NCBI GenBank assembly: GCA_037441845.1
Contig: JBBIRK010000008.1
Location: 6,952 to 70,951 of the forward strand
Length of the DNA: 64,000 nt
Direction: 5' to 3'
From: Candidatus Zixiibacteriota bacterium
Lineage (GTDB): Bacteria; Zixibacteria; MSB-5A5; UBA10806; 4484-95
Shown here: positions 2,443 through 63,849 of the stretch, in pieces
How positions within the stretch are numbered: position 1 is the stretch's first letter
How the letters are laid out: each line of letters begins with the position of its first letter
Notes under the pieces: generated by a model
Told to the model about the DNA's origin: nothing
The model's database searches: none
The model's input: the letters and a program-made list of their open reading frames with translations, nothing else
Translations under genes and position numbers: made by a program

Positions 2443-2462
2443 TTCATTCCTTCTATTAAGGT

Positions 2463-4262: not shown

Positions 4263-4285
4263 TTGCGCCGAATTCGCAGGAATGA

Positions 4286-5041: not shown

Positions 5042-6616
5042 TTAAATCCCATAGAGCGGCGCATATTTGCCGCGCAAGTACTCCAACAAATAGCGTGAAT
5101 TCAGGGGTTCGCCGGTCACTTTTATCACCAGTTCGGCAGCCCGATACCTTTGCCCGTGCCGATGGATTTTCTCCCGCAGCCAGCCAAGAAGAGCGGCGAA
5201 TCGCCCGTCGGCGAACTGCTTTTCGAGATCGGGGATTTCCTGCTTGGCTTTGGCGAAAAATTGGGCGGAGTACAGATTGCCGAGCGTATAGGTGGGGAAA
5301 TACCCTATTAGACCGGCGCCCCAATGAACATCCTGAAGGCACCCCTGGCGGTCATCGGGCGGTTCGATACCGAGATATTGTTTGAATTTGTCATTCCACA
5401 CTGCGGGGATATCGGCGGTCTTGAGATCGCCCGAGAAAATAGCGTGTTCGATTTCGAATCGGAGCAAAATATGCAAATTATAGGTGGCCTCGTCGGCCTC
5501 CACCCTGATAAACGACGGGCGCACCTCGTTGATAGCAAAATAAAACTCTTCCAACGACACGTCTCTCAGCGACTCGTAAAACAGCTTTTGAATCCAGGGG
5601 TAAAAATACTGCCAAAACGCCAGCGACCTGCCTACCACATTCTCCCACATCCGGGATTGCGATTCGTGAATCCCCAAAGAGATCGATTCCCCCATAGGAA
5701 GCCCGAAATATTTCTTATCCAGGCCTTGATCATATAGAGCATGGCCGGTTTCGTGCAATATCCCGAAAAACGCCTGGCCGAAATGGTTGGCATTGTAGCG
5801 GGTGGTGATACGAGTGTCGCCCGGGCCGATACCGATACAAAACGGATGGGTGGTCACATCCAGCCTCCCCGAGTCCATATCGAAACCGATGGCAGAGGCG
5901 GCCAACTTACCGATAATTTCCTGTTTATCGATAGGGAAACTGCGCTGCAATATCTCAGTTTTCGGCCGACGATTCGACTCGGCAATAGCCCGGATCAATT
6001 CCACCAGCGGCTTACGCAGATTTTCCAGAACCTTTTTCAGGCTCGCAGCCGTCTCCCCGGGCTCATAATCATCGAGAAGTGCATCATAGGGCTCGGTGTT
6101 ATATCCGATCGCCTCGGCATAACGTCGTTTGAGATTTATTATCTTTTCCAACCACGGAAGGAAAGGAGTCGTGTCCGATTTGCGGCGCGCCTCAACCCAG
6201 GCCTGCTCGGCCAGAGTAGTGGTCTTTTCCAGCTCCTCCACCAACGATTTGGGCACCTTCACCAACTTGTCATACTGCCGTCTTAGTTCGCGCACGTTCA
6301 CCCTGTCGGGCGAATCGTCCGCCTCAGAGGATACGATATCCTCCGCCTTTTTCAACAAATCACCGATTTCCGATGCAGTGAATTTTTCGTGCACCATACC
6401 CGAGAGCAAGGCTTTCTGTTCAGCACGATGGTTTCCGCCGCCCGTGGGCATATATGTCCTCTCGTCCCATTCGAGGACGGCGGCGCAGGAATGCAACAGG
6501 CTTATTTCGGTTATTCGACGATACAATTCATCGAGCGATTTCTTGTCATTATCCGTATCGGCCATGATCACACTCTCCTTTTCGCCCGGTCGGCGCGGTT
6601 TTTCAATTATATACAA
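5042..6616 (-). CDS. M32 carboxypeptidase (carboxypeptidase Taq family)
   Basis: 524-aa ORF. It carries the HETGHALYDQG zinc site (HExxH), IHESQSRMWEN, DVHWGAGLIGYFPTYTLGNLY and FIRVEADEATYNLHI, typical of thermostable carboxypeptidase 1 (M32). The start may be the internal MADTDND. Confidence 0.9.
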   Translation of the reverse strand: MYIIEKPRRPGEKESVIMADTDNDKKSLDELYRRITEISLLHSCAAVLEWDERTYMPTGGGNHRAEQKALLSGMVHEKFTASEIGDLLKKAEDIVSSEADDSPDRVNVRELRRQYDKLVKVPKSLVEELEKTTTLAEQAWVEARRKSDTTPFLPWLEKIINLKRRYAEAIGYNTEPYDALLDDYEPGETAASLKKVLENLRKPLVELIRAIAESNRRPKTEILQRSFPIDKQEIIGKLAASAIGFDMDSGRLDVTTHPFCIGIGPGDTRITTRYNANHFGQAFFGILHETGHALYDQGLDKKYFGLPMGESISLGIHESQSRMWENVVGRSLAFWQYFYPWIQKLFYESLRDVSLEEFYFAINEVRPSFIRVEADEATYNLHILLRFEIEHAIFSGDLKTADIPAVWNDKFKQYLGIEPPDDRQGCLQDVHWGAGLIGYFPTYTLGNLYSAQFFAKAKQEIPDLEKQFADGRFAALLGWLREKIHRHGQRYRAAELVIKVTGEPLNSRYLLEYLRGKYAPLYGI

Positions 6617-6920
6617 ATCTTATTATAATGGCAAACGCAAACGGGCCGGAAAACCAAAGTTGATAAAAATGCAAAAAAATATCCCTTTTCGTATAAAATC
6701 GGAGACGAAACGACTTGTGTATTTGTTATTGTATAAGGAAAGTATGTGCACAGGTCATATTGTTAAATTTCTGCTATACTCGTTGACATCTCGCCAAAAT
6801 CGGATAAATTACAAAATAGAATTTAAGCTCCTCTGTCATTAAGGTCGCGACAGATGAACGTTAAGGCAACCGACTCGATAATTTGAATATCTTCTAAAAT
6901 TTTTTGAGGGAGTTTTTGCG

Positions 6921-45971: not shown

Positions 45972-46826
45972 TCAACCGAATCGCCCGGTGATATAATCCT
46001 CGGTTTGCCTGAGCGCGGGTTTGGTGAACAGCATCCGGGTTGAATTCGCCTCGATCAAACGGCCCTCGTAGAAAAAGGCGGTATAATCGGAAATTCGGGC
46101 GGCTTGCTGCATGTTGTGGGTGACGATCACGATCGTGTAATTTTTTTTCAATTCGCCGATTAAGTCTTCTATTTTAGCCGTCGATATCGGATCGAGCGCC
46201 GATGCCGGCTCGTCCATCAACAACACCTCCGGCTGCACCGCCAGAGCCCTGGCGATACACAGCCTTTGCTGCTGCCCTCCTGAAAGGGTAAGCGCGCTCA
46301 TGTTCAATTTGCCTTTCACCTCGTCCCACAAATACGCTTTTTTAAGCGCCTTCTCGACGGCTTCCCTGATTATATTCTTGTCGGTGATTCCATTGACTTT
46401 CAACCCGAAAGCCACATTATCATAGATGGATTTAGGGAAGGGATTGGATTTCTGAAACACCATGCCGACTCTGGTGCGCAGTGTCGAGACGTCTTTTATT
46501 TCGCGATAAACATCTATATTGTCGAGCTTGATTTCGCCTTTAATCCGCGTGCCGGGGAACGTTTCATTCATCCTGTTAAGCGTTCTCAGGAAAGTCGATT
46601 TGCCGCATCCCGACGGCCCGATCAGAGCCATGACTCGATTTACGGGTATATCGAGCGATATGCCGAACAACGCCTGATTCTCACCATAATAGAAATCGAG
46701 ATTCCGGACCGTGATTTTGAATTTTTCGGGGGCCTTTTCTTTGCCGGTATCGACAAACGAGGTTTCGGTGAAAAAAGACCGGGTCGGCACATGGCTGTTT
46801 TGGCGCGTGGCTTGATTTTCAGACAT
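45972..46826 (-). CDS. pstB: phosphate ABC transporter ATP-binding protein
   Basis: 284-aa ORF. It carries Walker [10 protein letters not shown], the signature [15 protein letters not shown] and Walker [12 protein letters not shown], with PstB-typical flanks ([23 protein letters not shown]). Confidence 0.95.
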
Positions 46827-47766
46827 TCGTCCGCCTGCTCCTTATTCTGGCCCGGATAAAAATGGCGGTGAAATTCAACATGAAAGTCAGCATCAATAAA
46901 ACCAGCACCGTCCCGAACAATATCGGCTTCGTTTTCTCGATATCCGGAGATTGTGTGGCCATGACATAGATATGATAACCGAGTTCCATGAATTGATGGT
47001 TCAACTTCGTGGGCAGGTATGGAAGATAATACGCGGCGCCGGTGAACATGATCGGGGCCACCTCGCCGGCCCCGCGACTGATCGCCAAAATACCTCCGGT
47101 AAGAATTCCGGGCATCGCCTGTGGCAGTATTACCCTGGTGATTGTCTGCAGCCGCGACGCACCCAGCGCATAACTTGCATCCTTCATTTCTTTGGGTATC
47201 GACCTTAACGCTTCCTCGGTGGAAACTATCACAACCGGCAAAGTGAGCAGCGAAAGGGTCAGGGCCGCCCAGATAATCGCCGGCTGGCCCCAGACCGGGC
47301 GGCCGCCGTCGGTGACCAAGCGATCGAGTCCGGTCCCGATAAACCCGACGAAAAAGCCGAGTCCGAAAAGTCCGAAAACGATCGAGGGCACGCCGGCAAG
47401 GTTGTTTATGGCGATTCTAATAAGACGGGCAACGCGCGAATCGGCGCGGGTGAATTCGCTTAAATAAACCGCGGTCAAGACCCCCACGGGCACCACGAAA
47501 ATAATCATCAAAATCACCAGAAACACCGTGCCGAATATAGCCGGAAATATGCCGCCTTCTTCCATCCCGTTCTCGGGCGGGTTGCTCAAAAACTCCCAGC
47601 TCAAAACACCGATACCGCCGATTCCGATACTGACCATCAGAATCAAAAGCATCGAAATGATTATCCCCACCGCAAGCAACATCAAAGCGCGCGGTATTTT
47701 ACCCGTCCCCCTCTTGACATATCCTAAATCAACACGATCGGTTGAGCTTATGAGCCCTTGATTCAT
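46819..47766 (-). CDS. pstA: phosphate ABC transporter permease PstA
   Basis: 315-aa polytopic ORF with the EAA-type loop ([36 protein letters not shown]). It overlaps pstB by 8 nt and pstC by 4 nt. Confidence 0.9.
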
Positions 47767-48722
47767 TTCGTGTTTCCTTGGATTTTCATCTTAAGCCGCG
47801 CCAAAATCAAATCGCCCCCCAGGTTTACCACGAAAGTGAATATGAAAAGTAGCGTGCCGATTAAAAAGAGAACATTGTAATGAGCGCTTCCGAATACCAC
47901 TTCAGCCAACTCGGCCGCTATCGTGGCGGAAAAGGTTCGTATAGATACTAACGGATCTATCGAGATTATTGCGGCGTTTCCGGAGGCCATCAGCACGATC
48001 ATGGTTTCGCCGATCGCCCGGCCGAATCCGAGCACGACGCCGGCGGCAATCCCGGGCAGTGCGGCCGGGAAAACGGTCATGGTGGAAACCTGCCATGAAT
48101 TGGCGCCCAAGGCCATGGCGGCATCGCGCAACGATTGCGGCACCGCGGTCATGGCGTCCTCGGCGATCGTGAAAATGATCGGAATCACGGCCAGACCCAG
48201 GGCGATCCCCGCGTTAACCGCATTAAGCCGAAACGTCCAACCGAAAACATTCTGCAAAAAAGTCGCCAGCAATATCAAAGCGAAAAAGCCGAGCACGACC
48301 GAGGGGATTCCCGCCAGGATTTCGATGGCGGGTTTGATCATTTCGCGGGTTCTTTTCGAGGTGAATTCCGAGCTGTATATGGCGGCGCCTATGGCAAGCG
48401 GAGCCGCGAACAACATGGCGATCACCGCGGCCTTGATCGTCCCGAGAAAAAGCGGCAAAAGCGAATACTTGGGGACTTCCGAATTCGGCTGCCAGGACCA
48501 TTTCGGTTTCTGCCCCTCATAATACTGCTGCTTGAAAAGCATTTTCGAAAAGGCCGCCTCTTTCTGAACCTCGGCGTCGGTGAATATCGGCAAGGCCTCT
48601 TTGAAAATAAAAATGAATATCAGCAAAATGCCGATCAGGGCGAGGAATGCGTTAAGCGAAATGAACCCTTCGCCGAATGCCTCCCAAAACTTTGACTTTG
48701 GTTTGAATTTAAGTTCGGGCAT
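47763..48722 (-). CDS. pstC: phosphate ABC transporter permease PstC
   Basis: 319-aa polytopic ORF. EDAMTAVPQSLRDAAMALGANSWQVSTMTVFPAALPG is the permease EAA loop. Gene order is pstS-pstC-pstA-pstB-phoU. Confidence 0.9.
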   Translation of the reverse strand: MPELKFKPKSKFWEAFGEGFISLNAFLALIGILLIFIFIFKEALPIFTDAEVQKEAAFSKMLFKQQYYEGQKPKWSWQPNSEVPKYSLLPLFLGTIKAAVIAMLFAAPLAIGAAIYSSEFTSKRTREMIKPAIEILAGIPSVVLGFFALILLATFLQNVFGWTFRLNAVNAGIALGLAVIPIIFTIAEDAMTAVPQSLRDAAMALGANSWQVSTMTVFPAALPGIAAGVVLGFGRAIGETMIVLMASGNAAIISIDPLVSIRTFSATIAAELAEVVFGSAHYNVLFLIGTLLFIFTFVVNLGGDLILARLKMKIQGNTK

Positions 48723-48876
48723 TTCGAAATAGTGATTATGGCATTAAAAAGATCAAGAGCTGCCGTTTGACGCTGTCGAAAGTCGTCATTTTATCCTATT
48801 ACACTGGAACATATCGCCAAGAGCCGAGGGGGAGAAAAGCCGGGGGAATGCCCCGCCTTTCGTTTCACGGCCAATC

Positions 48877-49722
48877 CTATTCGACCATATTTTTAAGAGC
48901 CACTGCTTTCGGCAAGGGGATATAATCGACTTTTTCAGCGATCGCCTGCCCCTCAGGCGACAGCGCCCAGTTCACCAACGCCTTCAAATCGCCGGTCGGC
49001 TTGCCGTTGAAAAACCAATACAGCTCACGGGAAATCGGATAAGTGCCGTTGGTGATCGTCTCGATCGAGGGCACGACCGCAGGCGATTGCGGATCTTTCT
49101 TGATCGCCACATGCTTGACGCCCTTTTCCCAGGCGATCCCTCCATAGCCGATTCCATACTTATCCTTGCTTACGGCGTTGACGACAGCGGCGGTTCCGGG
49201 AAGCGTCTGCGTCTGTTCGGCGTAATCTTCATCCTGAAGAACGTGCTCTTTGAAATAGGCATAGGTGCCGGAATTGTTTTCCCTGCCGTAGAGCATGATC
49301 TTCTTGTCGGGACCGCCGAGCTCTTTCCAATTGGTGATAGTTCCGTTGAAAATCCCTTTCAACTGTTGCAGCGTGAGCTCCGCGATCGGGTTCTCGTTGT
49401 GAACGAACACCGCGATCCCGTCGAGAGCGACCGCAACCCTATAAGTATTCACCTTTTTCTGGGCGGCCAGATCGTATTCCGCCTTTTTCATATCCCGCGA
49501 TGCCTGGCAGATGTCGGTGGTGCCGTTTATCAGCGCCGCGATACCCGTGCCCGAACCGCCTCCGGACACCTGAATCGATACTCCCCGGTTGTTTTTCATG
49601 TACTCCTCGGCCCAGCGCTGGCCCAGCCTCACCAGGGTATCCGACCCTTTGATGGTGATATTGCCGGCGACGGCGGTTGTGCAAAAAGCGAGAACCAATA
49701 GAGAAACGATCACTCTCTTCAA
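48877..49722 (-). CDS. pstS: phosphate ABC transporter substrate-binding protein
   Basis: 281-aa ORF with a signal peptide. NITIKGSDTLV, VSGGGSGTGIAALINGTTDI and SRDMK are PstS/PBP-like motifs. Confidence 0.9.
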   Translation of the reverse strand: MKRVIVSLLVLAFCTTAVAGNITIKGSDTLVRLGQRWAEEYMKNNRGVSIQVSGGGSGTGIAALINGTTDICQASRDMKKAEYDLAAQKKVNTYRVAVALDGIAVFVHNENPIAELTLQQLKGIFNGTITNWKELGGPDKKIMLYGRENNSGTYAYFKEHVLQDEDYAEQTQTLPGTAAVVNAVSKDKYGIGYGGIAWEKGVKHVAIKKDPQSPAVVPSIETITNGTYPISRELYWFFNGKPTGDLKALVNWALSPEGQAIAEKVDYIPLPKAVALKNMVE

Positions 49723-49744
49723 TGCTTCCTCCTGGTTTTAGGTT

Positions 49745-50869
49745 TTAGAATTTAAACTCCGTATTAAGGTATATATATTTATCGGGATCAATTGCATCGT
49801 TTTGGGAGCTGGTTTGACGGTAATTCAAAGCCGCCTTTACCCCCTTAACCGGTGTGCATTCAAGGCCTGCGTAAAGGTAGTTGTAGCCGTCTTCGTCGAC
49901 CTCGGTGTTAGGATCATAAATGTCATAACGAGCGAAAACCCCCAACGTCTTGAACAGCGCCGCCTCCGGCAAAACCTTGTTCAGGTAGATATCGATCCAG
50001 GCGGATATGGCGTTGCTCTTGATATCTTCATTGCCCGCCCCGGCTCCATAAGTCCGGAAATTGGCATCGAAACAGATATCGAACATATCGCGGTAGCCGA
50101 CCCTTCCGCCCGCTGACAAGATGTTATGCTTGTAGTCGGCCGCATCCTCATCGGAGGCGATTGCTCGGTTCTGAGTGCCCATATAATACTGCAGAATCAG
50201 CGCCAACATCGACCAATCTTTGTTGTCCGAAATCGGTGTGAATTTGGCGAATAGGTTGATGTCCTTGTTCTTGTTTTTTTCGGTGACATCGCTGTATTTG
50301 GTGCCGTTCAGAATTGACAATCCTGCCGCGCCGAGTTTGCCCTTTTCCCCGAGATTCAACATCGCCGATGCGCCCAGGTCGGCCGTGGACAGCCAGCCCA
50401 AGAAATCAACCACATTGCGCTCTACATAGCGCCGCATCCACAATTCATCGGCGAAATAGAGGTACATCGTCGGCTGCAAACCGATCCTTAAAGTCAGCAA
50501 GTCTTCGATCGGCTTTACTTTCCAACTGCCATAGGCGTATTTCAACATGAACGGATATCCCTTGGAGACCTCCTGCGAAGGGATAACCACCGAATCGCCG
50601 TCACTATCTATCACCACTGTCGACGGGGTCTTGAAAAGGTCCGGCTTGATATCGGCGGTAATCTGAACGCTGGTGTAATCCGAGAATTTCGAAATAGCGG
50701 TGATATATGTCCTGCCGATCCCGAAACGGTTGTAGCTGTCGGCTCCTTCCGATAAATCCATCATCCACTCGGCATAGACGGTTCCCTTTAACGACGTCTC
50801 GGCCGCCGAAGCCCCGGCAAAAAACACCGCAATCGCCAATAAAACAGCTGCTTTAATCCGTAAATTCAT
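49745..50869 (-). CDS. outer-membrane beta-barrel porin linked to the Pst operon (putative phosphate-selective porin)
   Basis: 374-aa ORF with a signal peptide (AVLLAIAVFFAGASAAE), alternating beta-strand composition and a terminal aromatic residue (TEFKF). It lies 22 nt upstream of pstS. Phosphate selectivity is inferred from context only. Confidence 0.65.
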   Translation of the reverse strand: MNLRIKAAVLLAIAVFFAGASAAETSLKGTVYAEWMMDLSEGADSYNRFGIGRTYITAISKFSDYTSVQITADIKPDLFKTPSTVVIDSDGDSVVIPSQEVSKGYPFMLKYAYGSWKVKPIEDLLTLRIGLQPTMYLYFADELWMRRYVERNVVDFLGWLSTADLGASAMLNLGEKGKLGAAGLSILNGTKYSDVTEKNKNKDINLFAKFTPISDNKDWSMLALILQYYMGTQNRAIASDEDAADYKHNILSAGGRVGYRDMFDICFDANFRTYGAGAGNEDIKSNAISAWIDIYLNKVLPEAALFKTLGVFARYDIYDPNTEVDEDGYNYLYAGLECTPVKGVKAALNYRQTSSQNDAIDPDKYIYLNTEFKF

Positions 50870-51067
50870 TTGTTTTCCTCTCTTAAATTTTCTTGATTTT
50901 CGTGTCGTTCGTTATCATCTCCGTCGCTTAGTATCATCGATACTCTCATCACCACCTTTCCAATAATACCTTTGAATGTTTGGATTCTGTTAGGCAAGCG
51001 TTAGAATATCTTTTCCAATTATTAGTATCATTTAATGTTTCGCGGGCGCCTGGATAACCCCCGTCTC

Positions 51068-52432
51068 TCAACCTCGGCCGTCGATCAGGTGCGGCAGCGG
51101 AAGTTCGATCGTAAAATTGCTTCCTTCGCCTGGCCTGCTTTCCACCTCGATTCTACCGTCATGCGCCAAAACAATATGTTTTACTATCGCCAGACCCAGT
51201 CCGGTTCCACCGCCCTTGCGGCTTCTCGACTTGTCGACACGGTAAAATCGTTCGAAAAGACGGGGGATATGGCTTTTTTCGATTCCGCAGCCATTGTCGA
51301 TTACGCTGATTCTGAGCGTTTTTGCTTCGGTCGTGCAATTCACCCTCACCGATTTGCCGGGATCGCTGTATTTTATGGCGTTATCGATAAGATTGACCAG
51401 CGCTTGTTCGAGCAGGGCCGAATTTATCTTTGCCATCGGGTCGCCGACGCTCTGGAATTCGATCGTGATATTTTTTTCCTTGGCTTTCAGATCACAAGTA
51501 TTGACGGCCGCCTGGATGACGGGGGTGATTCTGTCCACGGCAAGCGAGATCTCGCCTCTTTCGGCCTCCCTTTCTATTCGTGAAAGGCTGAGAAGGTCTT
51601 CGATAATGGCGTTCAGCCTGTCGGCCTGCCTCGATATTATTTCCAGAAAACGGCGGGCATCCTCGGGACTATCGATCGCACCGTCGATGAGGGTTTCGAT
51701 AAATCCTTTTATCGAGGTTATCGGCGTCTTGAGTTCGTGGGAAACATTGGCCACGAAATCCTTGCGCACATTCTCGAGCCTGCGCAGGTGCGTGACATCG
51801 TTCAATACGATCAAATTTCCCAGCCTATCGCCGCCGCTTTCACGCAAGGGCGCGATGTACATATCGAAGAAGCGATCGCCGTCCGGGCCGTGCAAGACGA
51901 TTTCCTCCTCCATCGCACGGTCTTCTGCTATCGATCGCGAAATCAAATTCTGCATAGGCGAATTACGGACTATTTCCTGGACATGGCGGCCCCGGGCATC
52001 TGAATCGATCAAGCCGAACATCTGAGCCGCCGCCCGATTGATATTGATGATCCGTTCGTCCATATCGATGGCTATTATCCCCTCGATCAGACTGCTCATC
52101 ACCGCGTTCTGCTCGATTTCCCTTTTCTCCAGTTGACTGATTTTAGTTTCGATCTCTTCCATCAACCGATTGAGCCTAGCGGCCGTCGGTTCGATTTCGA
52201 GAAGCCCGCCGGAACTTGCGCGCGCCGCGAAATCACCGGTCAAGGCATGCTCGATCGCGGAGTCCAAACCCGCGACCCCTCTTTTCAATTTCGATTTCAG
52301 GAGTTGTGCGGTCAGGAAGGCGGTAAGCAAAAGAAAAAGATTCAGAACCACAATCAGCGGCGGCGTCACAGTCTTGCTGGTAAAAAGAGTGATTACGACT
52401 ATTAAAATAGCGAGTTCGAGAACGACAACCAA
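51068..52432 (-). CDS. phoR: PhoR-like sensor histidine kinase
   Basis: 454-aa ORF with N-terminal TM helices, a PAS-like segment, the H-box VSHELKTPITSIKG, the N-box LIDNAIKYS and G-boxes DNGCGI/GGTGLGLAIV. It follows phoB and adjoins the pst genes. Confidence 0.85.
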   Translation of the reverse strand: MVVVLELAILIVVITLFTSKTVTPPLIVVLNLFLLLTAFLTAQLLKSKLKRGVAGLDSAIEHALTGDFAARASSGGLLEIEPTAARLNRLMEEIETKISQLEKREIEQNAVMSSLIEGIIAIDMDERIININRAAAQMFGLIDSDARGRHVQEIVRNSPMQNLISRSIAEDRAMEEEIVLHGPDGDRFFDMYIAPLRESGGDRLGNLIVLNDVTHLRRLENVRKDFVANVSHELKTPITSIKGFIETLIDGAIDSPEDARRFLEIISRQADRLNAIIEDLLSLSRIEREAERGEISLAVDRITPVIQAAVNTCDLKAKEKNITIEFQSVGDPMAKINSALLEQALVNLIDNAIKYSDPGKSVRVNCTTEAKTLRISVIDNGCGIEKSHIPRLFERFYRVDKSRSRKGGGTGLGLAIVKHIVLAHDGRIEVESRPGEGSNFTIELPLPHLIDGRG

Positions 52433-52472
52433 GACCGCGAATAGAAACCAAAATACCGATCTGCTGTTCAGC

Positions 52473-53168
52473 TTAAAGCTCCTTGAAACGGTAGCCGACG
52501 CCCCTCACGGTTTCGATATACTTGGCATAGGAGCCCAGTTTTTTCCTCAGCCCCACTACTTGGACATCTATCGATCGGTCGGTAACCGGGTAATCTTCGC
52601 CTTTGATCGCATTTACGATCTGATAGCGCGTAAACACCCAACCCGGACGGCCGGCCAAAAAATGCAACAGGCGGAATTCGCTCAATGTCAACTCTAACCG
52701 TTTGCCTTTGATCGAAACCTCGTGGCGCCCCGGGTGGATGATCAAATCATCGATCTTTATTGGGGTATCGGGATCGAAATTGGTCTTGGCCTTGCGCCGG
52801 AGTATCGCCCTCACTCTGGCGATGAGTATTCGTGGGCTGAACGGCTTGGTTATATAATCATCGGCACCCAGCTCCAGTCCGGCGACGATATCGGCTTCCT
52901 CGCCCCGGGCGGTGAGCATTATAAGCGGCACATGCGCCGTTTTGGAATCGCCGCGCAACTGCCGGCAAACCTCGAAACCGTCGATTCCCGGCAGCATCAA
53001 ATCGAGGATAATCAAATCCGGCGGATTGGCTTTGGCCCTACGCAATCCATCCTCGCCGCTGATAGCGCCGGTAAAATCGAACCCCTCTTTGAGAAGATTG
53101 TATCTTATCAATTCGAGAATATCCTCGTCATCTTCAATGGCCAAAATGGTCTGTTTGGGCAAAATCAC
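52473..53168 (-). CDS. phoB: PhoB-like OmpR-family response regulator
   Basis: 231-aa ORF. The REC domain reads ILAIEDDEDI...DLIILDLMLPGIDG, and the winged helix reads LTLSEFRLLHFLAGRPGWVFTRYQIV...DRSIDVQVVGLRKKL...IETVRGVGYRF. TTG at 53162 (GGAGG 5 nt upstream) may be the true start. Confidence 0.88.
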   Translation of the reverse strand: MILPKQTILAIEDDEDILELIRYNLLKEGFDFTGAISGEDGLRRAKANPPDLIILDLMLPGIDGFEVCRQLRGDSKTAHVPLIMLTARGEEADIVAGLELGADDYITKPFSPRILIARVRAILRRKAKTNFDPDTPIKIDDLIIHPGRHEVSIKGKRLELTLSEFRLLHFLAGRPGWVFTRYQIVNAIKGEDYPVTDRSIDVQVVGLRKKLGSYAKYIETVRGVGYRFKEL

Positions 53169-54168: not shown

Positions 54169-55812
54169 TTGAACATTATTATGGGGGTAAAACCAATGGA
54201 TAATATATGCTACTGCGGACGAGACGTTAATCTTCCCCACGATTTCGAGCATTGCCTTTTTCACGCCCCGAAAGAAAAGAAGGGGATGGATGTGGAAAAG
54301 TTCAATGAGAAGATATATGAGCAAATAAGGGACGGCGATTTTAATTTTAGAGGCTACGTCTTTCCGGGGAATATCGATTTTACAGGACACGACTCCATCA
54401 GCGTGCTGTCTAATGCCGATTTTCATGAAGCGGAATTTCATGACGCAGTGAATTTTTCTAACGCGAATTTTGATAATTACGCGAATTTTGAACAGACCCA
54501 CTTCCATGGTGTTGTTTATTTTTGTAAAGCAAAATTTCATGACGCTGTGAATTTTAACGATGCGAAGTTTGATTATAACGCCGAATTTGCCGATGCCCGC
54601 TTTGAGGGCCGAGCCAGGTTTCAAAAGACGGTATTCGATAACGCGGAATTTACGGGAGCGCAATTTGCGAAAGATGTCGATTTCGCGGGAGCGTCATTCA
54701 AATACGTTAGTTTCAGTTATGTCAGATTTTCAAATTACACGTCATTCAAAAGCACTAATTTTTCGCAAGAGACCTATTTCTTAAATACAACGTTTTCGAC
54801 CTACGCCGAATTTCTTGAAGCGAGTTTCTCGGGCTCAACTATTTTCGGGGGTTGCCGATTCGAAGGGCGCGTCGTTTTTGAAAAGATAACCGTAACGGAA
54901 GACTCATTGCTGAGATTCAGCAGAATTAATATCGGTGCCGATTCCTCTTTCGAGTTGTCCTCTCCTGAAAACAAAAAAAATAGCGGTTCAATCATCCTTT
55001 TCGATCAAGCCATATTCCGCGAATACAGCACGATTTTCAAAAACACGATTTCCGCCCCCGACGGCCTGACCATCCTATTCCGGCATTGCCAGCTGAAAGA
55101 TGTTTATTTCATCGGTTGCGACCTTTCCGCTTCTTCGTTCTACACGAGCAATTTCGATCAAGCCAGATTCCATTCCAACAAATGGGGTTCTTCCGCCGGG
55201 AACGAAAGAAAACTTATAGAGGAAACTTGGTTCGAACAGCGCGAAAAGCTTAATGAAGAAGAAAGAAGAATATTCGATGAAAAATATCGGATTGCGAGCC
55301 TAATCTCAAGAAGAGAGATCGCCGCCATCTACCGCCGCCTGAAAGCGGCCCACGACTACACCAAGGATTTCCCCGAAGCCGGCCATTTTTATTATAACGA
55401 ATGCGAGACTATCCGTAGATATTTTCTTCACGAAGACAAAGGATTCATATCCAGATGCCGGGCCGGACTATATGCCGTTTACAATTTAATCGCCGGCTAT
55501 GGGGAAAGACCGCTGCGGGCGGCTTGTTGGCTGGGTGGTTCCTTGATACTTTTCGCTGCACTCAATTACCTCATCGGTATCGAAAAGCTGGATCGCGCCG
55601 GCAACAGCCTCGGAATCGTCAGAAACGCTTCGGACGTAATCACGTTCACGGTCATGCGCGTAATCCCGATGAGCCTTTTCCCGTTCCAGAGAAACGCCTA
55701 CGAGCCGAACGGACTTTTCGCATTGATGATAGCCTTGCTGAACTCGCTGATACCTCTGGTTTTGATCACTTTCATCCTACTCGGCCTCAAACGTCGATTC
55801 AGGCGCTATTGA
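54169..55812 (+). CDS. pentapeptide-repeat protein with N-terminal Cys/His motif and C-terminal transmembrane domain
   Basis: 547-aa ORF. Long runs of A(D/N)(F/L)xx pentapeptides are present (ADFHEAEFHDAVNFSNANFDNYANFEQTHFHG...AKFDYNAEFADARFEGRARFQKTVFDNAEFTGAQF). The N-terminus reads CYCGRDVNLPHDFEHCLFH. Three C-terminal hydrophobic helices are visible (CWLGGSLILFAALNYLIGI, VITFTVMRVIPMSLFPF, LFALMIALLNSLIPLVLITFILLGL). The probable true start is the ATG at 54196 (GGGGGT 7 nt upstream). Confidence 0.8.
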   Translation: MNIIMGVKPMDNICYCGRDVNLPHDFEHCLFHAPKEKKGMDVEKFNEKIYEQIRDGDFNFRGYVFPGNIDFTGHDSISVLSNADFHEAEFHDAVNFSNANFDNYANFEQTHFHGVVYFCKAKFHDAVNFNDAKFDYNAEFADARFEGRARFQKTVFDNAEFTGAQFAKDVDFAGASFKYVSFSYVRFSNYTSFKSTNFSQETYFLNTTFSTYAEFLEASFSGSTIFGGCRFEGRVVFEKITVTEDSLLRFSRINIGADSSFELSSPENKKNSGSIILFDQAIFREYSTIFKNTISAPDGLTILFRHCQLKDVYFIGCDLSASSFYTSNFDQARFHSNKWGSSAGNERKLIEETWFEQREKLNEEERRIFDEKYRIASLISRREIAAIYRRLKAAHDYTKDFPEAGHFYYNECETIRRYFLHEDKGFISRCRAGLYAVYNLIAGYGERPLRAACWLGGSLILFAALNYLIGIEKLDRAGNSLGIVRNASDVITFTVMRVIPMSLFPFQRNAYEPNGLFALMIALLNSLIPLVLITFILLGLKRRFRRY

Positions 55813-55903: not shown

Positions 55904-58202
<2,299 letters not shown>

Positions 58203-58217
58203 CGTTTCCGTTATTAT

Positions 58218-58246
58218 ATTATACTATTTAGACCGTCTCAAATCAA
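58218..58246 (-). promoter_or_regulatory. sigma70 promoter for DUF721-gyrB
   Basis: The minus strand reads TTGATT (58246-58241), 17 nt, TATAAT (58223-58218), about 15 nt upstream of the ATG at 58202. Confidence 0.5.
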
Positions 58247-58328
58247 GTTTCCAAATAAAAAATGTGCTTGGGCAACTTCCTGTCTGACAATTGGTTATGG
58301 TTTGTCAATCGCCGGTCACAAAGACACC

Positions 58329-59534
58329 TCAGACCATATTGCGATGGGAAAACAGATTATGGGCGTGAAGCCCGAAACGGGAACCGATAAACTCCGCCTG
58401 CTCGGCCGTGGCGGTGATCACCAGCAACTCCTCAGATTCAAAATCCGCTAAGTTCAAATCGCCCAAAAAACGCCATTCATGTTCGGGTTTCCAGTTACCG
58501 CCCGCCGATCCCTGGTTTTGGAAATATGGCTGGTCGCTCGTCGATAATCGTCGGTATAGGGTATGCGGACCGTAAATCACCGGTCGGATACCTGTTCTTG
58601 AGGCGGCTTTTCTTTTTATGGCGATGGCGAACGGTTCGAAATTCAGTCGATTGTATCGATTACGCCAGGTCATGAGCGGAAGCATTTCTTGCGGAGGCAA
58701 ATTGGAAAACGCCACCGCCTTCCGCCTTTCGTTTTGATTTCGCTCCGAGCCGTAAATGATCTTGCTTTCGAGAATATTGCAAAGAGTGTGGAACGCCGTG
58801 GCCGGATAAGATTCCGATTCGGTTATCCGCCGGTAATAATCGAATCTTTTCTGGTTCGGCCAGGCCGAATGAAAAGTGTGGGTCCAGTGCGCCACATGAT
58901 CCCAATTGGAAATCGGCCGAATATCGTTTTCGATAATATGGGCTGATTCACCTGAAGTCTTTCCGAGGGGGCGATATGGAATACGATAGCCGTCGATTAT
59001 TTCTTTGCCGGCGACCGAATCAAGCAACCGATCCAGATTGCCCCCGGACCTTACCGACACGGGAATAATCAAATCCGCCAATCGGAACAACGATTCGTCG
59101 CGTATCGGCCAGTTCGATTTTGGTGACCGTGATCTCCTTTTCTGGAAAAACGCAAAGCCAACCTCCTCCGGCCGCAATTTGAAGTCATCGATAAGAAGCG
59201 AGATTATCTTGTCCTGATTTTCCGTGGCCGCGACCGGGCATACGATTATTTGCCTGAATCGGTATGCGCTGCAAATATAGATCTGCAATTCCCATGTCGT
59301 AATACCGACACTCGTCAAGATGGTGTAACCGCTCGACCCCGCGAATTTTATCGCCTCGATTGTCTGTTTCACCCAATCGTCCCGGCCGCAGGGGGTTTTC
59401 GATTGGCGTGAATTGAGAATAAGAGCCGTTCTATCTCGGAACAAAGAATGTGGTGCTTTCACGATTATTTCTATCGGTCCACCATAGGAGCTGGTCGCAA
59501 TCCGGGGAATTTCGGCATGGCTTGAATTATCCAT
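58329..59534 (-). CDS. fusion protein: N-terminal DprA/Smf-like (SLOG superfamily) Rossmann domain + C-terminal AbiGi-like domain
   Basis: 401-aa ORF. The N-terminal half (ALILNSRQSKTPCGRDDWV...GYTILTSVGITTWE...QIIVCPV...RDESLFRLADLIIPVSVRSGGNLDRLL) is co-linear with the DprA Rossmann core (IVGSRxAS..G / IVSGLAxGID / IAVL / RNxII..L..vvVEA..SGsL). The C-terminal half (VAHWTHTF...FHTLCNILESKIIYGSE...AVAFSNLPPQEM...FAIAIKRKAASRTGIRPVIY...EHEWRFLGDL...LLVI) follows the pattern I recall for Pfam AbiGi (PF10899). Neither assignment was verified by search. Confidence 0.55.
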   Translation of the reverse strand: MDNSSHAEIPRIATSSYGGPIEIIVKAPHSLFRDRTALILNSRQSKTPCGRDDWVKQTIEAIKFAGSSGYTILTSVGITTWELQIYICSAYRFRQIIVCPVAATENQDKIISLLIDDFKLRPEEVGFAFFQKRRSRSPKSNWPIRDESLFRLADLIIPVSVRSGGNLDRLLDSVAGKEIIDGYRIPYRPLGKTSGESAHIIENDIRPISNWDHVAHWTHTFHSAWPNQKRFDYYRRITESESYPATAFHTLCNILESKIIYGSERNQNERRKAVAFSNLPPQEMLPLMTWRNRYNRLNFEPFAIAIKRKAASRTGIRPVIYGPHTLYRRLSTSDQPYFQNQGSAGGNWKPEHEWRFLGDLNLADFESEELLVITATAEQAEFIGSRFGLHAHNLFSHRNMV

Positions 59535-59717: not shown

Positions 59718-60446
59718 ATGCGGCTTCTGAAACGTAATATTAGTGCGACGATGAATAGATTGATTATAATCGGTGCCATCATCTTGCTCGCGGCGGCGCC
59801 CTTTGCCCAGATCGGCCAGAAAACCGACGATCCGTCCGCCGTTACCATCGCCCGTCTTCGCTACACCGGAGGGGCCGATTGGTATTGGGGAAGATCCGCC
59901 CTGCCCAATCTTCATCGTTTCCTCGATCAAAATACTCCCATCAAAGCGATTGACCGCGAGGTAAATATCGAATTAACCAGCCCGGAGTTATATAAATATC
60001 CGATACTGTTCATGACTGGCCACGGGAACGTGAAGTTCAGCGATCAAGAGGTGGCCGCGCTGAGAGAATACCTTGCCGCCGGCGGATTCTTGTTCGCAAA
60101 CGACAGCTACGGCCTGGCGCCTGCATTCCGGCGCGAGATGAAAAAAGTCTTTCCCGGGCAGGAGCTCACCGAATTGCCGTTCAGCCATCCGATCTTTCAT
60201 GTATTATATGAATTTCCGAACGGGTTGCCTAAAATCCACGAACATGACAACAAACCGCCGCAGGGGTTCGGGCTTTTCTGGTCGGCCAATCCCGCTGAAA
60301 AGAAGCGGCTTGTGGTCTTTTTCGCTTACGAAAGCGACATCGGCGACGGCTTGGAAGACAGCGAGGTTTACAACGACCCCCCGGAAAAACATCAAGCGGC
60401 CCTGAAAATGGCGGCGAATATCGTGGCTTACGCCATGATGCAATAG
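59718..60446 (+). CDS. DUF4159-like secreted protein
   Basis: 242-aa ORF with a signal peptide (LIIIGAIILLAAAPFAQ). IARLRYTGGADWYWGRSALPNLHRFL and PILFMTGHGNVKFSDQEVAALREYLAAGGFLFAND fit DUF4159 (class-I glutamine-amidotransferase-like fold), from recollection. Confidence 0.6.
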   Translation: MRLLKRNISATMNRLIIIGAIILLAAAPFAQIGQKTDDPSAVTIARLRYTGGADWYWGRSALPNLHRFLDQNTPIKAIDREVNIELTSPELYKYPILFMTGHGNVKFSDQEVAALREYLAAGGFLFANDSYGLAPAFRREMKKVFPGQELTELPFSHPIFHVLYEFPNGLPKIHEHDNKPPQGFGLFWSANPAEKKRLVVFFAYESDIGDGLEDSEVYNDPPEKHQAALKMAANIVAYAMMQ

Positions 60447-60453
60447 GTGATAT

Positions 60454-63400
60454 ATGGGAAGTAAAGAATACTCTACGATAGTCGAAAAGCTGCGGCACAC
60501 CGGCAAAAGCATCAGCCGCCGGCTGGCTATCGAGGGGTCGTTCAGGCTGGCCTCTTTGCTGGCTGCGGTTTCGGTCGTACTCTGGTTTATCACTTTGATT
60601 TTCTGGCCCGGTCCTGCTTTTCGCATGACGGCGGCGGTCGTAGTTTCGGCCGCGGCGGCCGTTTACGCCTATCTGGCGATTATCAGGCCGCTTCTTCGTA
60701 AACCGCCTTTGGCCTCCGTCGCCCTCAGACTTGAGCGCCGCTACGGAAAACTGCAATCGCGCTTGATCGGGGCTTTGCAGCTTTATGACAAAATGGCCGA
60801 CAATCGTGAGAATTATTCCTTGGAATTGATCGAAAAAACAATCGAGGAAGCGGGCGAAGAAATAAAAAATATCGATTTCTCGGTGGCGGTAGCCAAAAAC
60901 AAAAGGCCGCTACGCCTCATGCTCGTCGCATTCTGCCTGCTCGGTTTAGTTTCTCTCGTATCCTTGAACACTCTTGGACAGACGCTGCTTCTCTATACCA
61001 ACCCGCTGGCCGATATCCCGCGTCCGACGAATATACGGTTGTCGATCGACCCCATAAACGCCGAGGTTGTAAAGAACGAGGACATATTGGTTCAAATCAG
61101 AGCCGAAGGCGGCAGAATCGGCCGCCCTAAGTTCAACTATCGCCATGGTGACGATTCCTGGTTCGAGGTGCCGCCCGAGGAAATTGCGGCCGACAGCTCG
61201 AATATCGGCGGCGCATTCGCCTTCACTTTCAAGAAGCTCCGCCGCGACGTGGAATTTTACGCATCCGCCGGTTCCGCTCGATCGCCTATCGGAAAAATCA
61301 AAGTCATCGATCCGCCTCGAATCATTGATGTTTCGGTCACCCTGAACTACCCGAAATATACGGGAATGGCCGATAAAACACTGCCGCCCAACGAGGGCTC
61401 GGTCACCGCGATTAAGGGAACCCGGGTCAAATTCGAAGGCAGAGTGAATAAACCGATAAGCGATGCGCAGATCGTGTTCATGGATTCCACCGGGAAGCTA
61501 ATGGCGACTCGAAAGCTTTCGATAAGCCCAAAAGGGATCAGCGGCGACTTCCGGGTCGATTTCAGCGGCGCGTACAGAGTGGAAATCAGCGACTCCGCGG
61601 GTTTGACGAACCCCAAACCGATAAATTACGAGATTACCGCCTTGGCCGACTATCCCCCTGCGATAAACATCACTTTCCCGGCAAGCGATATCGATCTCGA
61701 CGAACGGATGTTCGTTCCACTTACCGCCGAGATTCATGACGATTACGGATTTTCCCGACTCGATCTGGTTTACTGGATATCCTCCGAGGGAAAAGAAAGC
61801 GAACATCGGAGAATCACCTTGACCCGTGACTTCAACGGTCAATTGGAGGGGATCGTCGAATACGACTGGTCGGTCGAGGAACTGAACTTGATGCCCGGCG
61901 ATCTGGCCCATTATTATCTCGAGATTTTCGACAACGACGCCGTTTCCGGAACCAAATCGGCGCAAAGCAAGACCTACAGCGCCCGGCTGCCCAGCCTCGA
62001 TGAAATCGTGGCCGATATCACCGGCGGCCGTGAGGATATTATCGAACAGATGCAGGAAGCCTCGGCCTATCAAAAACAGCTGAAGGAACAGTTGGAAAAT
62101 ATCGCCAGGGAAATGCAATCGGCCAACCAGGTCAACTGGGAGAAGAAAAGCGAAATCCAGGCGGCGGTGAACCGGCAGAAAGATATCGCCGAGAAGGTCG
62201 AAAAGGCCGCCCGCCAATTGGCCGAGAACATCGAAAAGCTCGATCGTCAGCAAATGGCCGCCGAGGAGATGCTCGACAAAATGCGCGAAATCCAGGAACT
62301 GATGGAAAAGGTCGCTACACCCGAATTAAAGGAAGCCATGCGTCGTCTCGAAGAGGCTATGCGGCAGATGGACCCCGAACGCCTTAAAGAGGCCTTGAAG
62401 AATTTCCAATTAAACCTCGAGCAGCTGAACAAGAACCTGGACCGCACATTGGCCCTGCTGAAACAGCTCGAGTTGGAGCAGAAACTTGACACCATGGCGA
62501 AAATGGCTGAAAAACTCGCGGAAGAGCAGGGAAAAATCAACCAGCGGCTCGAACAATGCTCTTCGCAAAATGAAATGGGGCAATTGCGAAAGCCACAGGA
62601 AAGCCAACAGCAAGGCCTGGAAAGCATCAAAGAGCAAATGCAGAAAACCGCCGATTTGAACGAAGAGGTGCAAACGATCGCCCCCGAGGATATCGAGCAG
62701 GCGATGAAGGAGTTGAATTCCGAGGAATTGAAGAATCTGCTCGAATCGATGATGCAGAATCTGCAATCCGGAAACAAGAGCAATTGCTCCAGCTCGGGCA
62801 AGAAAATTCAACAGAAATTCCGCGATCTGGCCGGCATGTTCAAATCGATGCTGCAAAAAACCCAGAGCCGCCAGCAACAAATGATCGTCGAGGCGATCCG
62901 CAAAGCGATAGAGGATATCTTATATATATCGAAATCTCAGGAAGCGTTGGCCGAATCGACCCGGGCTTGCTCGCAGCGGGGAGGCAATTTCTCCGGCCTG
63001 ACCGGCGAACAAGCCGAGTTGATCGACGCCACGGAGCGGGCCGCCGACAAAGTATCCGAACTGACGAAAATGACCCTGTTCGTTAATTTTTCCACGATGC
63101 AAAAATTGGGTGAGGCTCTTCGGGCGATGGAGAAATCCACGAAAGATCTCGGTAGCAGGCAGCCCGCTATTGCCGTAAACGGCCAAATCCAGGCGATGTC
63201 GGCGCTCAATCAAACGGCCCGCATGCTCATGAAATCGCAAGGACAGGCCAGCGCCTGCCAGTCGGGAACCGGAATGAACGAAATGATGCAACAATTATCG
63301 CAACTGGGCCAAATGCAGATGCAACTGAATCAACAAACCCAATCGCTCATGCCGATTCCGATGGGGCAGGCGATGAGTTTGATTCAGCAACGTCAACTCG

Positions 63401-63849
63401 AGGAGTTGGCCGGCCAGCAGGAGGCGATCCGAAAAAGCCTTCAGGAATTGACCGATCAGTACGGAGACCCGGATAACGTGCTCGGCCGTCTCGGCGAACT
63501 CGGCGAGGAAATGCGCCGAATAGTCGAACAGATGCGCCGGGAAGGTCTGAACGAAAATGTGGTGCGAAGACAAGAGCGGATATTGAGCCGTCTGCTGGAT
63601 GCCCAGAAGTCGGTCAATCGGCGTGACTACACGCAAAAACGTCAGGCACGCACCGGCGAGGATATAATCAGAAGATCGCCGGCCGCCCTGAACGACGAGC
63701 CGGTATCGAACCGCTTGACCGAAGATATTATCCGAGCGCTCAACGAAAAATATCCGCGGCGATACGAGAATCAAATAAAGGGATATTTCCGAATGCTATC
63801 CGGAGAGCTTCCGACAGGGACTGCAACCGGTCAGGAATCAGGCGAATGA
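60454..63849 (+). CDS. 1131-aa membrane-anchored protein with beta-rich ectodomain and a very long Q/E/K/L-rich coiled coil (DUF4175-like)
   Basis: There are two or three N-terminal TM helices (FRLASLLAAVSVVLWFITLIFW, MTAAVVVSAAAAVYAYLAII, LRLMLVAFCLLGLVSLVSL). A ~350-aa beta-rich region follows, then ~500 aa of heptad-like low-complexity sequence. The C-terminal VRRQERILSRLLDAQKSVNRRDY...KGYFRML resembles the DUF4175 tail as I recall it. Confidence 0.55.
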   Translation: MGSKEYSTIVEKLRHTGKSISRRLAIEGSFRLASLLAAVSVVLWFITLIFWPGPAFRMTAAVVVSAAAAVYAYLAIIRPLLRKPPLASVALRLERRYGKLQSRLIGALQLYDKMADNRENYSLELIEKTIEEAGEEIKNIDFSVAVAKNKRPLRLMLVAFCLLGLVSLVSLNTLGQTLLLYTNPLADIPRPTNIRLSIDPINAEVVKNEDILVQIRAEGGRIGRPKFNYRHGDDSWFEVPPEEIAADSSNIGGAFAFTFKKLRRDVEFYASAGSARSPIGKIKVIDPPRIIDVSVTLNYPKYTGMADKTLPPNEGSVTAIKGTRVKFEGRVNKPISDAQIVFMDSTGKLMATRKLSISPKGISGDFRVDFSGAYRVEISDSAGLTNPKPINYEITALADYPPAINITFPASDIDLDERMFVPLTAEIHDDYGFSRLDLVYWISSEGKESEHRRITLTRDFNGQLEGIVEYDWSVEELNLMPGDLAHYYLEIFDNDAVSGTKSAQSKTYSARLPSLDEIVADITGGREDIIEQMQEASAYQKQLKEQLENIAREMQSANQVNWEKKSEIQAAVNRQKDIAEKVEKAARQLAENIEKLDRQQMAAEEMLDKMREIQELMEKVATPELKEAMRRLEEAMRQMDPERLKEALKNFQLNLEQLNKNLDRTLALLKQLELEQKLDTMAKMAEKLAEEQGKINQRLEQCSSQNEMGQLRKPQESQQQGLESIKEQMQKTADLNEEVQTIAPEDIEQAMKELNSEELKNLLESMMQNLQSGNKSNCSSSGKKIQQKFRDLAGMFKSMLQKTQSRQQQMIVEAIRKAIEDILYISKSQEALAESTRACSQRGGNFSGLTGEQAELIDATERAADKVSELTKMTLFVNFSTMQKLGEALRAMEKSTKDLGSRQPAIAVNGQIQAMSALNQTARMLMKSQGQASACQSGTGMNEMMQQLSQLGQMQMQLNQQTQSLMPIPMGQAMSLIQQRQLEELAGQQEAIRKSLQELTDQYGDPDNVLGRLGELGEEMRRIVEQMRREGLNENVVRRQERILSRLLDAQKSVNRRDYTQKRQARTGEDIIRRSPAALNDEPVSNRLTEDIIRALNEKYPRRYENQIKGYFRMLSGELPTGTATGQESGE

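Follow-up and report, generated by a model that had tools for sequence, protein, structure and literature searches.

The window analyzed here is a 64,000-nt stretch of a Candidatus Zixiibacteriota bacterium genome (assembly GCA_037441845.1, contig JBBIRK010000008.1, positions 6,952 to 70,951 of the forward strand), and its subject is an open reading frame (ORF) at 58329..59534 on the minus strand that has an ATG start and 401 codons plus a stop and encodes a two-domain protein of 401 amino acids (aa). The N-terminal domain is DprA-like in fold and motif order yet lies outside the DprA family as Pfam defines it, and the C-terminal domain is, to judge from profile and model comparisons, an AbiGi/DUF2971-type domain and most probably an active ADP-ribosyltransferase (ART). 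We classify the fusion as a new domain architecture, the defining one of a large family that lacks annotation. Tentatively, we propose that the protein is an NAD+-dependent nucleic-acid ADP-ribosyltransferase whose DprA-like module binds, or gates the enzyme on, single-stranded nucleic acid or a nucleotide.

A large family with a new domain architecture

A word-indexed search of a 5.8-billion-protein set detected 49 homologs, nearly all full length and none with a Pfam domain, and those that carry names come from Zixibacteria or Chitinispirillaceae. When a profile of 47 members was run exhaustively over 1.84 billion cluster representatives (clusters at 50% identity), it matched 2,139 representatives at E ≤ 1e-3, of which 1,344 reached E ≤ 1e-30. 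The best 150 of the 2,139 representatives are almost all 355 to 405 aa long and align end to end, and Zixibacteria and Chitinispirillaceae again account for the few members that bear names. Profile matching thus places the protein in a large family without a Pfam model, of at least 1,344 clusters. Single-sequence scans of the window protein against Pfam, NCBIfam, PADLOC, and PHROGs gave no match, and PDB sequence searches, whether with the protein, the family profile, or either domain profile, produced only chance-level matches.

The fusion extends across Zixibacteria, Fibrobacterota/Chitinispirillaceae, Desulfobacterota, Myxococcota, Nitrospirota, Acidobacteriota, Poribacteria, and candidate division CSSED10-310. 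Planctomycetota also carry it, with a divergent N-terminal domain and a longer linker (hhalign, loci L139 and L175), and some of their homologs have a long insertion in that linker; the planctomycete carriers include cultured Rubripirellula and Stieleria as well as strain SH139, whose genome is complete. A degenerate DNA pattern, FEPYG-11-G..PV.Y, picked out true family members in 119 of the 120 matches listed, so the family is larger than the set described here.

In three loci, the two domains are encoded by separate genes that are adjacent or overlapping (L046, 6159-7777; L146, 1242-2727; L230, 3161-4818), those of L046 overlapping by four bases, an arrangement that suggests the two parts work together. 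The L046 N-domain gene is the only family member found to link by sequence to DprA, PsyrA, and ShosA. Two further loci, L161 and L184, hold apparently frameshifted copies. A profile search with the N-terminal domain by itself recovered two fragments only, revealing no other architectures and no DprA link. Protein P0167 (659 aa), in which the family match spans residues 294-658, is the only listed member with a long N-terminal extension; its extra 290 residues are rich in Arg, Pro, and Gly, have no Pfam match, and probably reflect a gene called too long on a G+C-rich contig.

The ORF was confirmed at the place where the sequence-only reading, an earlier examination of the letters without database searches, had put it, and all the sequence blocks that reading had named in either half were found in the translation. 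The homologs and a ratio of nonsynonymous to synonymous substitution rates (dN/dS) of ~0.17 against the L001 ortholog, indicative of purifying selection, rule out a shadow or otherwise spurious ORF. For the same pair of loci, dN/dS was 0.19 for trmB, 0.04 for gyrB, and 0.26 for a neighboring pentapeptide-repeat gene, all of these values being approximate with synonymous sites near saturation. The G+C content of the gene, ~0.50, equals that of its flanks, which together with conserved synteny rules out a recent horizontal insertion. The parts of the protein are encoded as follows, model confidence being given as the predicted local distance difference test score (pLDDT).

59433..59534, minus strand: variable N-terminal extension (aa 1-34) with two predicted beta-strands, aa 7-14 and 20-27; pLDDT 56-89
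58977..59432, minus strand: SLOG/DprA-like Rossmann domain (aa 35-186), from Foldseek, the N-domain profile, and hhalign
58905..58976, minus strand: poorly conserved interdomain linker (aa 187-210); pLDDT down to 61 at aa 190-200
58332..58904, minus strand: AbiGi/DUF2971-like domain of predicted ADP-ribosyltransferase fold (aa 211-401), from profile and Foldseek comparisons

The C-terminal and N-terminal domains

Across 185 full-length members, whose median identity to the window protein is 32%, residues D146, H216, E300, Y321, E353, and R355 are 100% conserved, and R145, W54, W348, and E351 are 99% conserved. H216, Y321, E351xE353, E300, and R355 are conserved as well in 65 further genomic homologs from other phyla. 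The motifs that hold these and other conserved positions are listed here from the N terminus onward.

59397..59414, minus strand: NSRQSK loop after strand 1; S42 98%, R43 89%, and Q44 96% conserved
59097..59102, minus strand: R145-D146, 99% and 100% conserved; R145 aligns with the first Arg of the DprA 'RNR' motif (Helicobacter pylori R143)
59037..59063, minus strand: PVSVRSGGN, with P158, S160, R162, and G165 conserved
58881..58889, minus strand: H216-W-T218, candidate ART motif I (NAD+-binding His); H216 100% and T218 97% conserved, on strand 213-217
58626..58640, minus strand: FEPFA (family consensus FEPYG) with invariant E300, identified by conservation
58572..58574, minus strand: Y321 in GIRPVIYG, candidate ART motif II Tyr, 100% conserved
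58470..58484, minus strand: E351-H-E353-W-R355, candidate ART motif III 'ExE', 99%, 100%, and 100% conserved, on strand 353-357

The relationship of the C-terminal domain to AbiGi emerges from the family rather than from the single protein. Pfam AbiGi is weakly matched by 17 of 47 members (best E = 9e-4), DUF2971 by 2 of 47, and PADLOC AbiGi by 10 of 47 (best E = 1.9e-5); the window protein itself has no Pfam AbiGi match and falls below every threshold. A C-domain profile search returned 163 proteins, including stand-alone ones of 190-290 aa. Two such stand-alone relatives, P0263 and P0293, were detected by hmmsearch with this profile at E = 1e-40 and 1e-14, and with 25.2 and 32.6 bits, respectively, both pass the Pfam AbiGi gathering score of 22.4; an hhalign comparison of the profile with P0293 gave a probability of 99.4% and E = 8e-22 over 164 columns. 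The weak member matches and this profile link bear out the earlier assignment of the C-terminal half to an AbiGi-like group. The domain is homologous to AbiGi (PF10899) and DUF2971 (PF11185) and shares their block order (HxT, IL....I.GS, V.FS, PYGI......G.RPVIY, and E.EWR), its own blocks reading H216-W-T218, NILESKIIYGS, AVAFSNLPP, GIRPVIYG, and EHEWR...LLVI. Unlike the AbiGi system, the gene has no AbiGii partner, is chromosomal among housekeeping genes rather than on a plasmid, and encodes an additional N-terminal SLOG domain; its family is not known to confer an abortive-infection phenotype.

A 2025 survey lists AbiGi and DUF2971 as ART-like groups near DarT and describes a strictly conserved motif II Tyr for DUF2971/AbiGi and an ExE motif III for DUF2971 (PMC12522546). 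When the C-terminal domain was modeled separately (pLDDT 94) and compared with the PDB by Foldseek, its best match was Thermus DarT (7omy; E = 0.012, probability 0.92, template modeling (TM) score 0.43), and the top 14 matches comprised DarT (7omy/7omv/7omx), E. coli DarT1 (8baq), KptA/Tpt1, and exotoxins including exotoxin A. Against viral models, Foldseek returned unnamed proteins and two RNA 2'-phosphotransferases, none at E ≤ 1e-3. In the AlphaFold model, the candidate catalytic Glu of the ExE motif sits at the start of a strand. Because the His-Tyr-Glu set (H216, Y321, and E351xE353) is complete, the domain most likely uses NAD+ and transfers ADP-ribose, as far as conserved residues can indicate.

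An AlphaFold model of the whole chain built on the family alignment had a pLDDT of 91.2 and a predicted TM score (pTM) of 0.89, the latter pointing to a fixed arrangement of the domains. The top Foldseek match of the N-terminal domain in the PDB was ShosA (8zva; E = 1.7e-5), together with DprA of three species (3maj; 4ljk/4ljr/5mll; 3uqz) at E = 2.5e-5 to 4.5e-4; next came YpsA, the Moco carrier protein, and LOG, which belong to the SLOG group, and all N-domain matches had probabilities of 0.94-1.0. A sequence bridge is provided by the split N-domain gene of L046, which matches the family N-profile by hhalign (probability 97.6%, E = 5e-12), PADLOC PsyrA (7e-7) and ShosA (8e-5), and Pfam DNA_processg_A (E = 2.5e-5; 24.0 bits, under the 29.6-bit gathering cut-off). 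These structural matches and the L046 bridge upheld the DprA/SLOG-like assignment of the N-terminal half. When the N-profile was aligned by hhalign with the three PDB DprA sequences, the match was weak (probability 27%) yet in the expected register, with TS.G..TWE over SG.A.GID and K..WP.RD over K..FP.RNR.

The domain shares with DprA/Smf, ShosA, and PsyrA the motif order G-S-R, S-G-x-x-G, R-N/D, and R-S-G-G/S, represented in the window protein by the blocks ILNSRQSK, TSVGITTWEL, WPIRD, and PVSVRSGGNL. It differs from all three in that the fused family has no significant sequence match to them, 'RD' stands for 'RNR', and an ART-like domain is fused behind. In the AlphaFold model, there is neither a SAM domain nor the C-terminal winged-helix domain of DprA, the ART-like domain following the Rossmann domain directly, and aa 1-34, which are gappy and variable in the family alignment, form no SAM domain either. 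The single-stranded DNA (ssDNA)-binding arginines of H. pylori DprA are R52, R143, and R170, and they are conserved in ShosA (PMC12961424). The fused family keeps candidate equivalents of two of these three arginines, R43 and R145, together with a Gly-rich phosphate loop. R145 is placed by both the hhalign register and motif order; R43 is placed by motif position only, the NSRQSK loop corresponding in order and position to the DprA 'G-S/T-R' motif that holds R52, with the hhalign alignment starting downstream of it. R162 (86% conserved) matches the basic residue preceding the DprA 'SGS' loop, and by motif order PVSVRSGGN may be the counterpart of the DprA '(R/K)SGS' and SLOG 'PGGxG' phosphate-binding loops.

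The relationship of the N-terminal domain to SLOG enzymes also raises the possibility, in our view a quite improbable one, that the protein both writes and processes soluble ADP-ribose derivatives: the ART domain would make a signal or toxin from NAD+, and the SLOG domain would either be catalytic, as a LOG-like N-glycosidase, or degrade the product, so that the two domains would form a self-limiting toggle. SLOG domains have been described as nucleotide enzymes and as processors or sensors of ADP-ribose derivatives (PMC9503650, PMC7824862), the LOG and Moco carrier structures are among the fold matches, and the pocket of the N-terminal domain contains acidic residues (D146, 100%; E82, 86%) that are unusual for a pure DNA-backbone binder. 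However, the N-terminal domain has only PVSxRxGGN and lacks the PGGxGTxEE signature of LOG along with the catalytic glutamates in it; the closest folds, DprA and ShosA, are noncatalytic; and the nearest ART relatives, the DarT proteins, modify macromolecules and are not NADases of the RES/Frg type.

Genomic contexts of the fusion gene and its relatives

We examined ~60 neighborhoods of homologs; Pfam or PADLOC profiles were applied to ~45 of the flanking proteins, and the remainder were only clustered. In the clade nearest the window, the gene adjoins dciA-gyrB in L001, L010, L011, L012, and L015 and adjoins the DUF4159 gene in L013, L014, and L048. Synteny with dciA-gyrB and/or DUF4159 is retained in nine related assemblies, with rearrangements cutting on either side of the gene, and in a scan started from DciA, four of four assemblies carried the gene, either beside dciA or beside DUF4159 elsewhere in the assembly. 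These contexts imply an ancestral arrangement, DUF4159 divergent from gene-dciA-gyrB, that was broken on either side in different lineages while the gene was kept. The identities of the fusion protein and of GyrB to those of the window fall together across loci (68/95, 65/95, 49/87, 48/88, and 41/83%). In L010, L011, L017, L018, L021, L022, L025, and L048, GyrB is 87-95% identical to that of the window, and a Zixibacteria-type gene order is shared.

The contexts differ in other clades. Elsewhere in Zixibacteria, the gene follows hutH near lpxC-fabZ, follows hutU, follows a pyrroline-5-carboxylate-dehydrogenase-type gene, or lies between acyl-CoA dehydrogenase and membrane-protein genes, and single homologs overlap an HD-domain gene or follow a chemoreceptor gene. 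In nine Pirellulaceae loci, including those of Rubripirellula and strain SH139, the homolog is adjoined, usually on the same strand, by nadA, which encodes quinolinate synthase of NAD+ synthesis (L144 [2015-4843], L148, L149, L153, L175, L234, L239, L245, and L246); this adjacency fits NAD+ use, although it may just reflect gene order shared within the lineage. No partner gene recurs across all clades.

The sequence-only reading had proposed a stand-alone defense system, to be doubted if homologs were always syntenic with replication genes and never found in defense islands. The two parts of that expectation came apart: no homolog lay in a defense island among the contexts examined, and a universal replication neighborhood is ruled out by the differences between clades. 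In its fuller form, the defense explanation is single-gene abortive infection, in which the SLOG domain senses a phage nucleotide or ssDNA and releases an ART toxin that acts by DNA ADP-ribosylation or NAD+ depletion, analogous to ThsA (SIR2-SLOG), DarT, or ShosA. The closest characterized relatives of both domains (ShosA, PsyrA, AbiGi, and DarT) do belong to defense or toxin-antitoxin systems, and the fusion of a SLOG domain with an NAD+-using effector is the design of ThsA (PMC7272460, PMC11204291). With ThsA of Thoeris, the protein shares the principle of an NAD+-using domain, predicted here, and a SLOG domain in one polypeptide; unlike in ThsA, the catalytic domain is ART-like rather than SIR2, the SLOG domain comes first and is of the DprA-like type, no TIR gene (ThsB) is adjacent, and the gene lies outside defense islands. 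The family is also scattered across many phyla, lacks a fixed partner gene as a self-contained system would, and evolves faster than its neighbors (68% identity where GyrB has 95%; dN/dS 0.17 versus 0.04), but its rate equals that of ordinary genes such as trmB.

Other evidence speaks against defense. No defense gene was identified beside any homolog: PADLOC matched none of the seven flanking genes tested, its only matches in the neighborhoods being to the split N-domain gene of the family itself and to a stand-alone C-domain relative, and Pfam assigned housekeeping or metabolic functions to most of the ~40 other flanking proteins, with no match for the rest. Neither an AbiGii partner nor a phosphoribosyltransferase (ShosT) or TIR (ThsB) gene was identified beside the gene among these contexts, and unlike in Shosta and PsyrTA, no ShosT or PsyrT toxin gene is adjacent and the PADLOC ShosA model matches neither the window protein nor the 47 members. 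No relative came up among 72,556 plasmids and 50,697 phage records searched with tblastn or in a pattern scan of IMG/VR, and PHROGs had no match to the fused family. The contexts are chromosomal and conserved within clades, and the gene, native in composition, was kept in nine of nine related assemblies and in all of those found through DciA. We therefore do not uphold the stand-alone defense system and regard single-gene abortive infection as unlikely; the gene looks like a vertically inherited chromosomal gene and not a mobile phage-defense cassette.

In five loci, pilD, which encodes prepilin peptidase, stands close behind the homolog on the same strand (L046 [6159-8613], L161, L171, L198, and L230), and in L046, comEC lies ~1.7 kb upstream of the N-domain gene on the opposite strand, a possible link to DNA uptake. 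These contexts, the DprA-like fold of the N-terminal domain, and the position of the window gene beside dciA-gyrB, which we take to be the slot where recF often sits, would suit a DprA substitute that loads RecA on incoming ssDNA during transformation or recombination, with the C-terminal domain as a structural or regulatory appendage. We consider this most improbable, in that the invariant catalytic-type residues of the C-terminal domain argue for an active enzyme, the SAM and winged-helix domains are lacking and the Pfam DprA model is unmatched, and the association with competence or replication genes is confined to some clades. No canonical DprA was found in 2.36 Mb of locus sequence, but the loci are short segments and hence uninformative about whole genomes.

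A stand-alone C-domain relative of ~185 aa is encoded in a phoH-ybeY-[C]-lnt operon, [C] being its gene, in 23 loci, sometimes followed by prfB. Start and stop codons overlap along ybeY-[C]-lnt (for example, L128:3128-3682 on the plus strand, L131, L162, L165, L215, and L222), the hosts are Binataceae and 'delta proteobacterium' metagenome-assembled genomes, and this branch keeps E300, Y321, and ExEWR. Its place in a core ribosome-maturation operon hints at an RNA-related housekeeping role for the stand-alone branch. The corresponding explanation for the fusion is an RNA-directed enzyme, with the ART domain acting on RNA ends or bases in the manner of KptA/Tpt1, in tRNA or rRNA maturation or repair, and the SLOG domain binding RNA or a nucleotide cofactor. 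Besides the ybeY operon, it would account for one homolog that overlaps the end of miaA in a mutL-DUF3108-miaA operon and for the KptA/Tpt1 structures at ranks 4-13 of the PDB Foldseek comparison and ranks 9 and 19 of that with viral models. Tpt1 itself has the catalytic set Arg-His-Arg-Arg, unlike the His-Tyr-Glu set with ExE found here, so that a Tpt1-type phosphotransferase identity of the C-terminal domain is kept only as part of this alternative. The ybeY context, moreover, occurs only in the stand-alone branch, a remote relative of the fused family (E ~1e-16 to 1e-23), and the N-terminal domain most resembles an ssDNA binder, DprA; we judge an RNA-directed role of the fusion to be rather unlikely.

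In the window, the gene order is pst genes, phoR/phoB, trmB, a pentapeptide-repeat gene, gyrB, dciA, the fusion gene, DUF4159, and DUF4175. The immediate neighbors are as the sequence-only reading had described them.

59718-60446, plus strand: DUF4159 gene (PF13709, E = 5e-63), divergent from the fusion gene
57882-58202, minus strand: DUF721 gene, that is, dciA (PF05258, E = 1.9e-20), downstream of the fusion gene and followed by gyrB
58213..58246, minus strand: two promoter-like sites that overlap (TTGAGA-17-TATAAT and TTGATT-17-TATAAT), within the 126 nt separating the fusion gene from dciA

The promoter-like sites suggest that dciA-gyrB may be transcribed independently; they are pattern matches, from a consensus scan that gave nine sites in the region versus 2.6 expected. 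Two ORFs antisense to gyrB and dciA, of 245 aa (56738-57475, plus strand) and 212 aa (57813-58451, plus strand), are shadow ORFs and not genes.

Farther along the minus strand, 45972-53168 holds a block for phosphate uptake and regulation that includes an ABC ATPase, two permeases, a PBP-like binding protein, an unannotated 374-aa protein, a PAS histidine kinase, and an OmpR-type response regulator. The plus-strand gene at 54169-55812 converges on gyrB and encodes a pentapeptide-repeat protein (PF13576; 547 aa) whose C terminus is hydrophobic; the pairing is kept in L001 and L010, where the repeat protein is 45-51% identical and GyrB 95%. Gyrase is a known interaction partner of pentapeptide-repeat proteins such as Qnr and MfpA. 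In the plus-strand stretch 59718-63849, the gene after DUF4159 encodes a DUF4175 protein of 1,131 aa that contains a long coiled-coil-like region rich in Gln and Glu, and a GTDB scan found the DUF4159-DUF4175 pair conserved in Zixibacteria, Marinimicrobia, Bacteroidota, and other phyla (at least 578 matches).

Proposed function and its significance

By analogy, the fusion protein may work most like DarT, an assignment we hold with some reserve, while being related by sequence to AbiGi/DUF2971, by fold to DprA/ShosA, and by design to ThsA. DarT (DUF4433/PF14487) is the best solved-structure match of the C-terminal domain, shares with it a His-x-Thr on the first strand and Tyr and Glu residues of catalytic type, is like the predicted fusion enzyme a stand-alone cytoplasmic bacterial ART, and acts on single-stranded nucleic acid. 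The fusion protein differs from DarT in having no PF14487 sequence match, in its fused DprA-like domain, and in large helical inserts between strands 1 and 2, and it differs from DarTG in that no DarG macrodomain gene was identified among profiled neighbors at any locus.

NAD+ use, nucleic acid as the target, and the parts played by the SLOG domain and by the whole protein in the cell are inferred, and they would fit together as follows. The protein would be a cytoplasmic two-domain enzyme, the domains being modeled as one compact unit. The DprA-like module would hold ssDNA (possibly RNA) or would gate the enzyme by binding a nucleotide, presenting or licensing the substrate for the ART domain, which would ADP-ribosylate either a base or a terminal phosphate in the way that DarT modifies ssDNA. 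The role would be an endogenous one in the control or processing of nucleic acid, in replication, repair, uptake, or RNA maturation. A nucleic-acid target is favored because DarT and Tpt1, the nearest structural relatives of the C-terminal domain, act on nucleic acid, because the nearest relatives of the fused N-terminal domain bind ssDNA, and because several contexts involve DNA or RNA transactions.

Several observations weigh against this proposal. The structural match between the C-terminal domain and DarT is weak, with no PDB match at E ≤ 1e-3. The ART assignment of the AbiGi group is not universally accepted, since lactococcal AbiGi is described in a 2026 review as being without a significant PDB match or known mechanism (PMC13064643). 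In the N-terminal domain, PF02481 matches none of the 47 members at E ≤ 1, the PDB sequence search gave no DprA match, the third DprA arginine (the R170 position) is not conserved in the family, and the Asn of the DprA 'RNR' motif is exchanged for an invariant Asp, D146, which would be as compatible with a small-ligand pocket as with a DNA groove. The neighborhoods differ between clades and give no consistent functional clue. Finally, no ADP-ribose remover (macrodomain, NADAR, or ARH) was identified beside the gene in any context, and an unregulated DarT-like enzyme without one would be toxic; the same observation suggests that control is built into the protein.

Bacterial nucleic-acid ADP-ribosylation is known mainly from the DarTG toxin-antitoxin system and a few toxins. 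The fusion of the two domains is apparently undescribed, in line with the sequence-only reading, since none of the papers searched in full text joins AbiGi/DUF2971 with SLOG/DprA in one protein. It is conceivable, if on balance doubtful, that a large chromosomal family carries out endogenous ADP-ribosylation of ssDNA, or of RNA, with its own DprA-type module and no dedicated antitoxin, in which case DarT-like chemistry would have been domesticated for replication, repair, DNA uptake, or RNA maturation in Zixibacteria, Fibrobacterota, Planctomycetota, and Desulfobacterota. If true, the family would represent a second and widespread architecture, with the transferase joined physically to a DprA-like binding domain and encoded by an ordinary chromosomal gene in several poorly studied phyla. 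The family also shows that homology to defense proteins is by itself insufficient to call a defense gene. If the enzyme is active, it would offer a handle on how such transferases are targeted and restrained without a macrodomain partner, a first clue to what the AbiGi/DUF2971 group does, and a function for a family of more than 1,000 sequence clusters that currently has no annotation.

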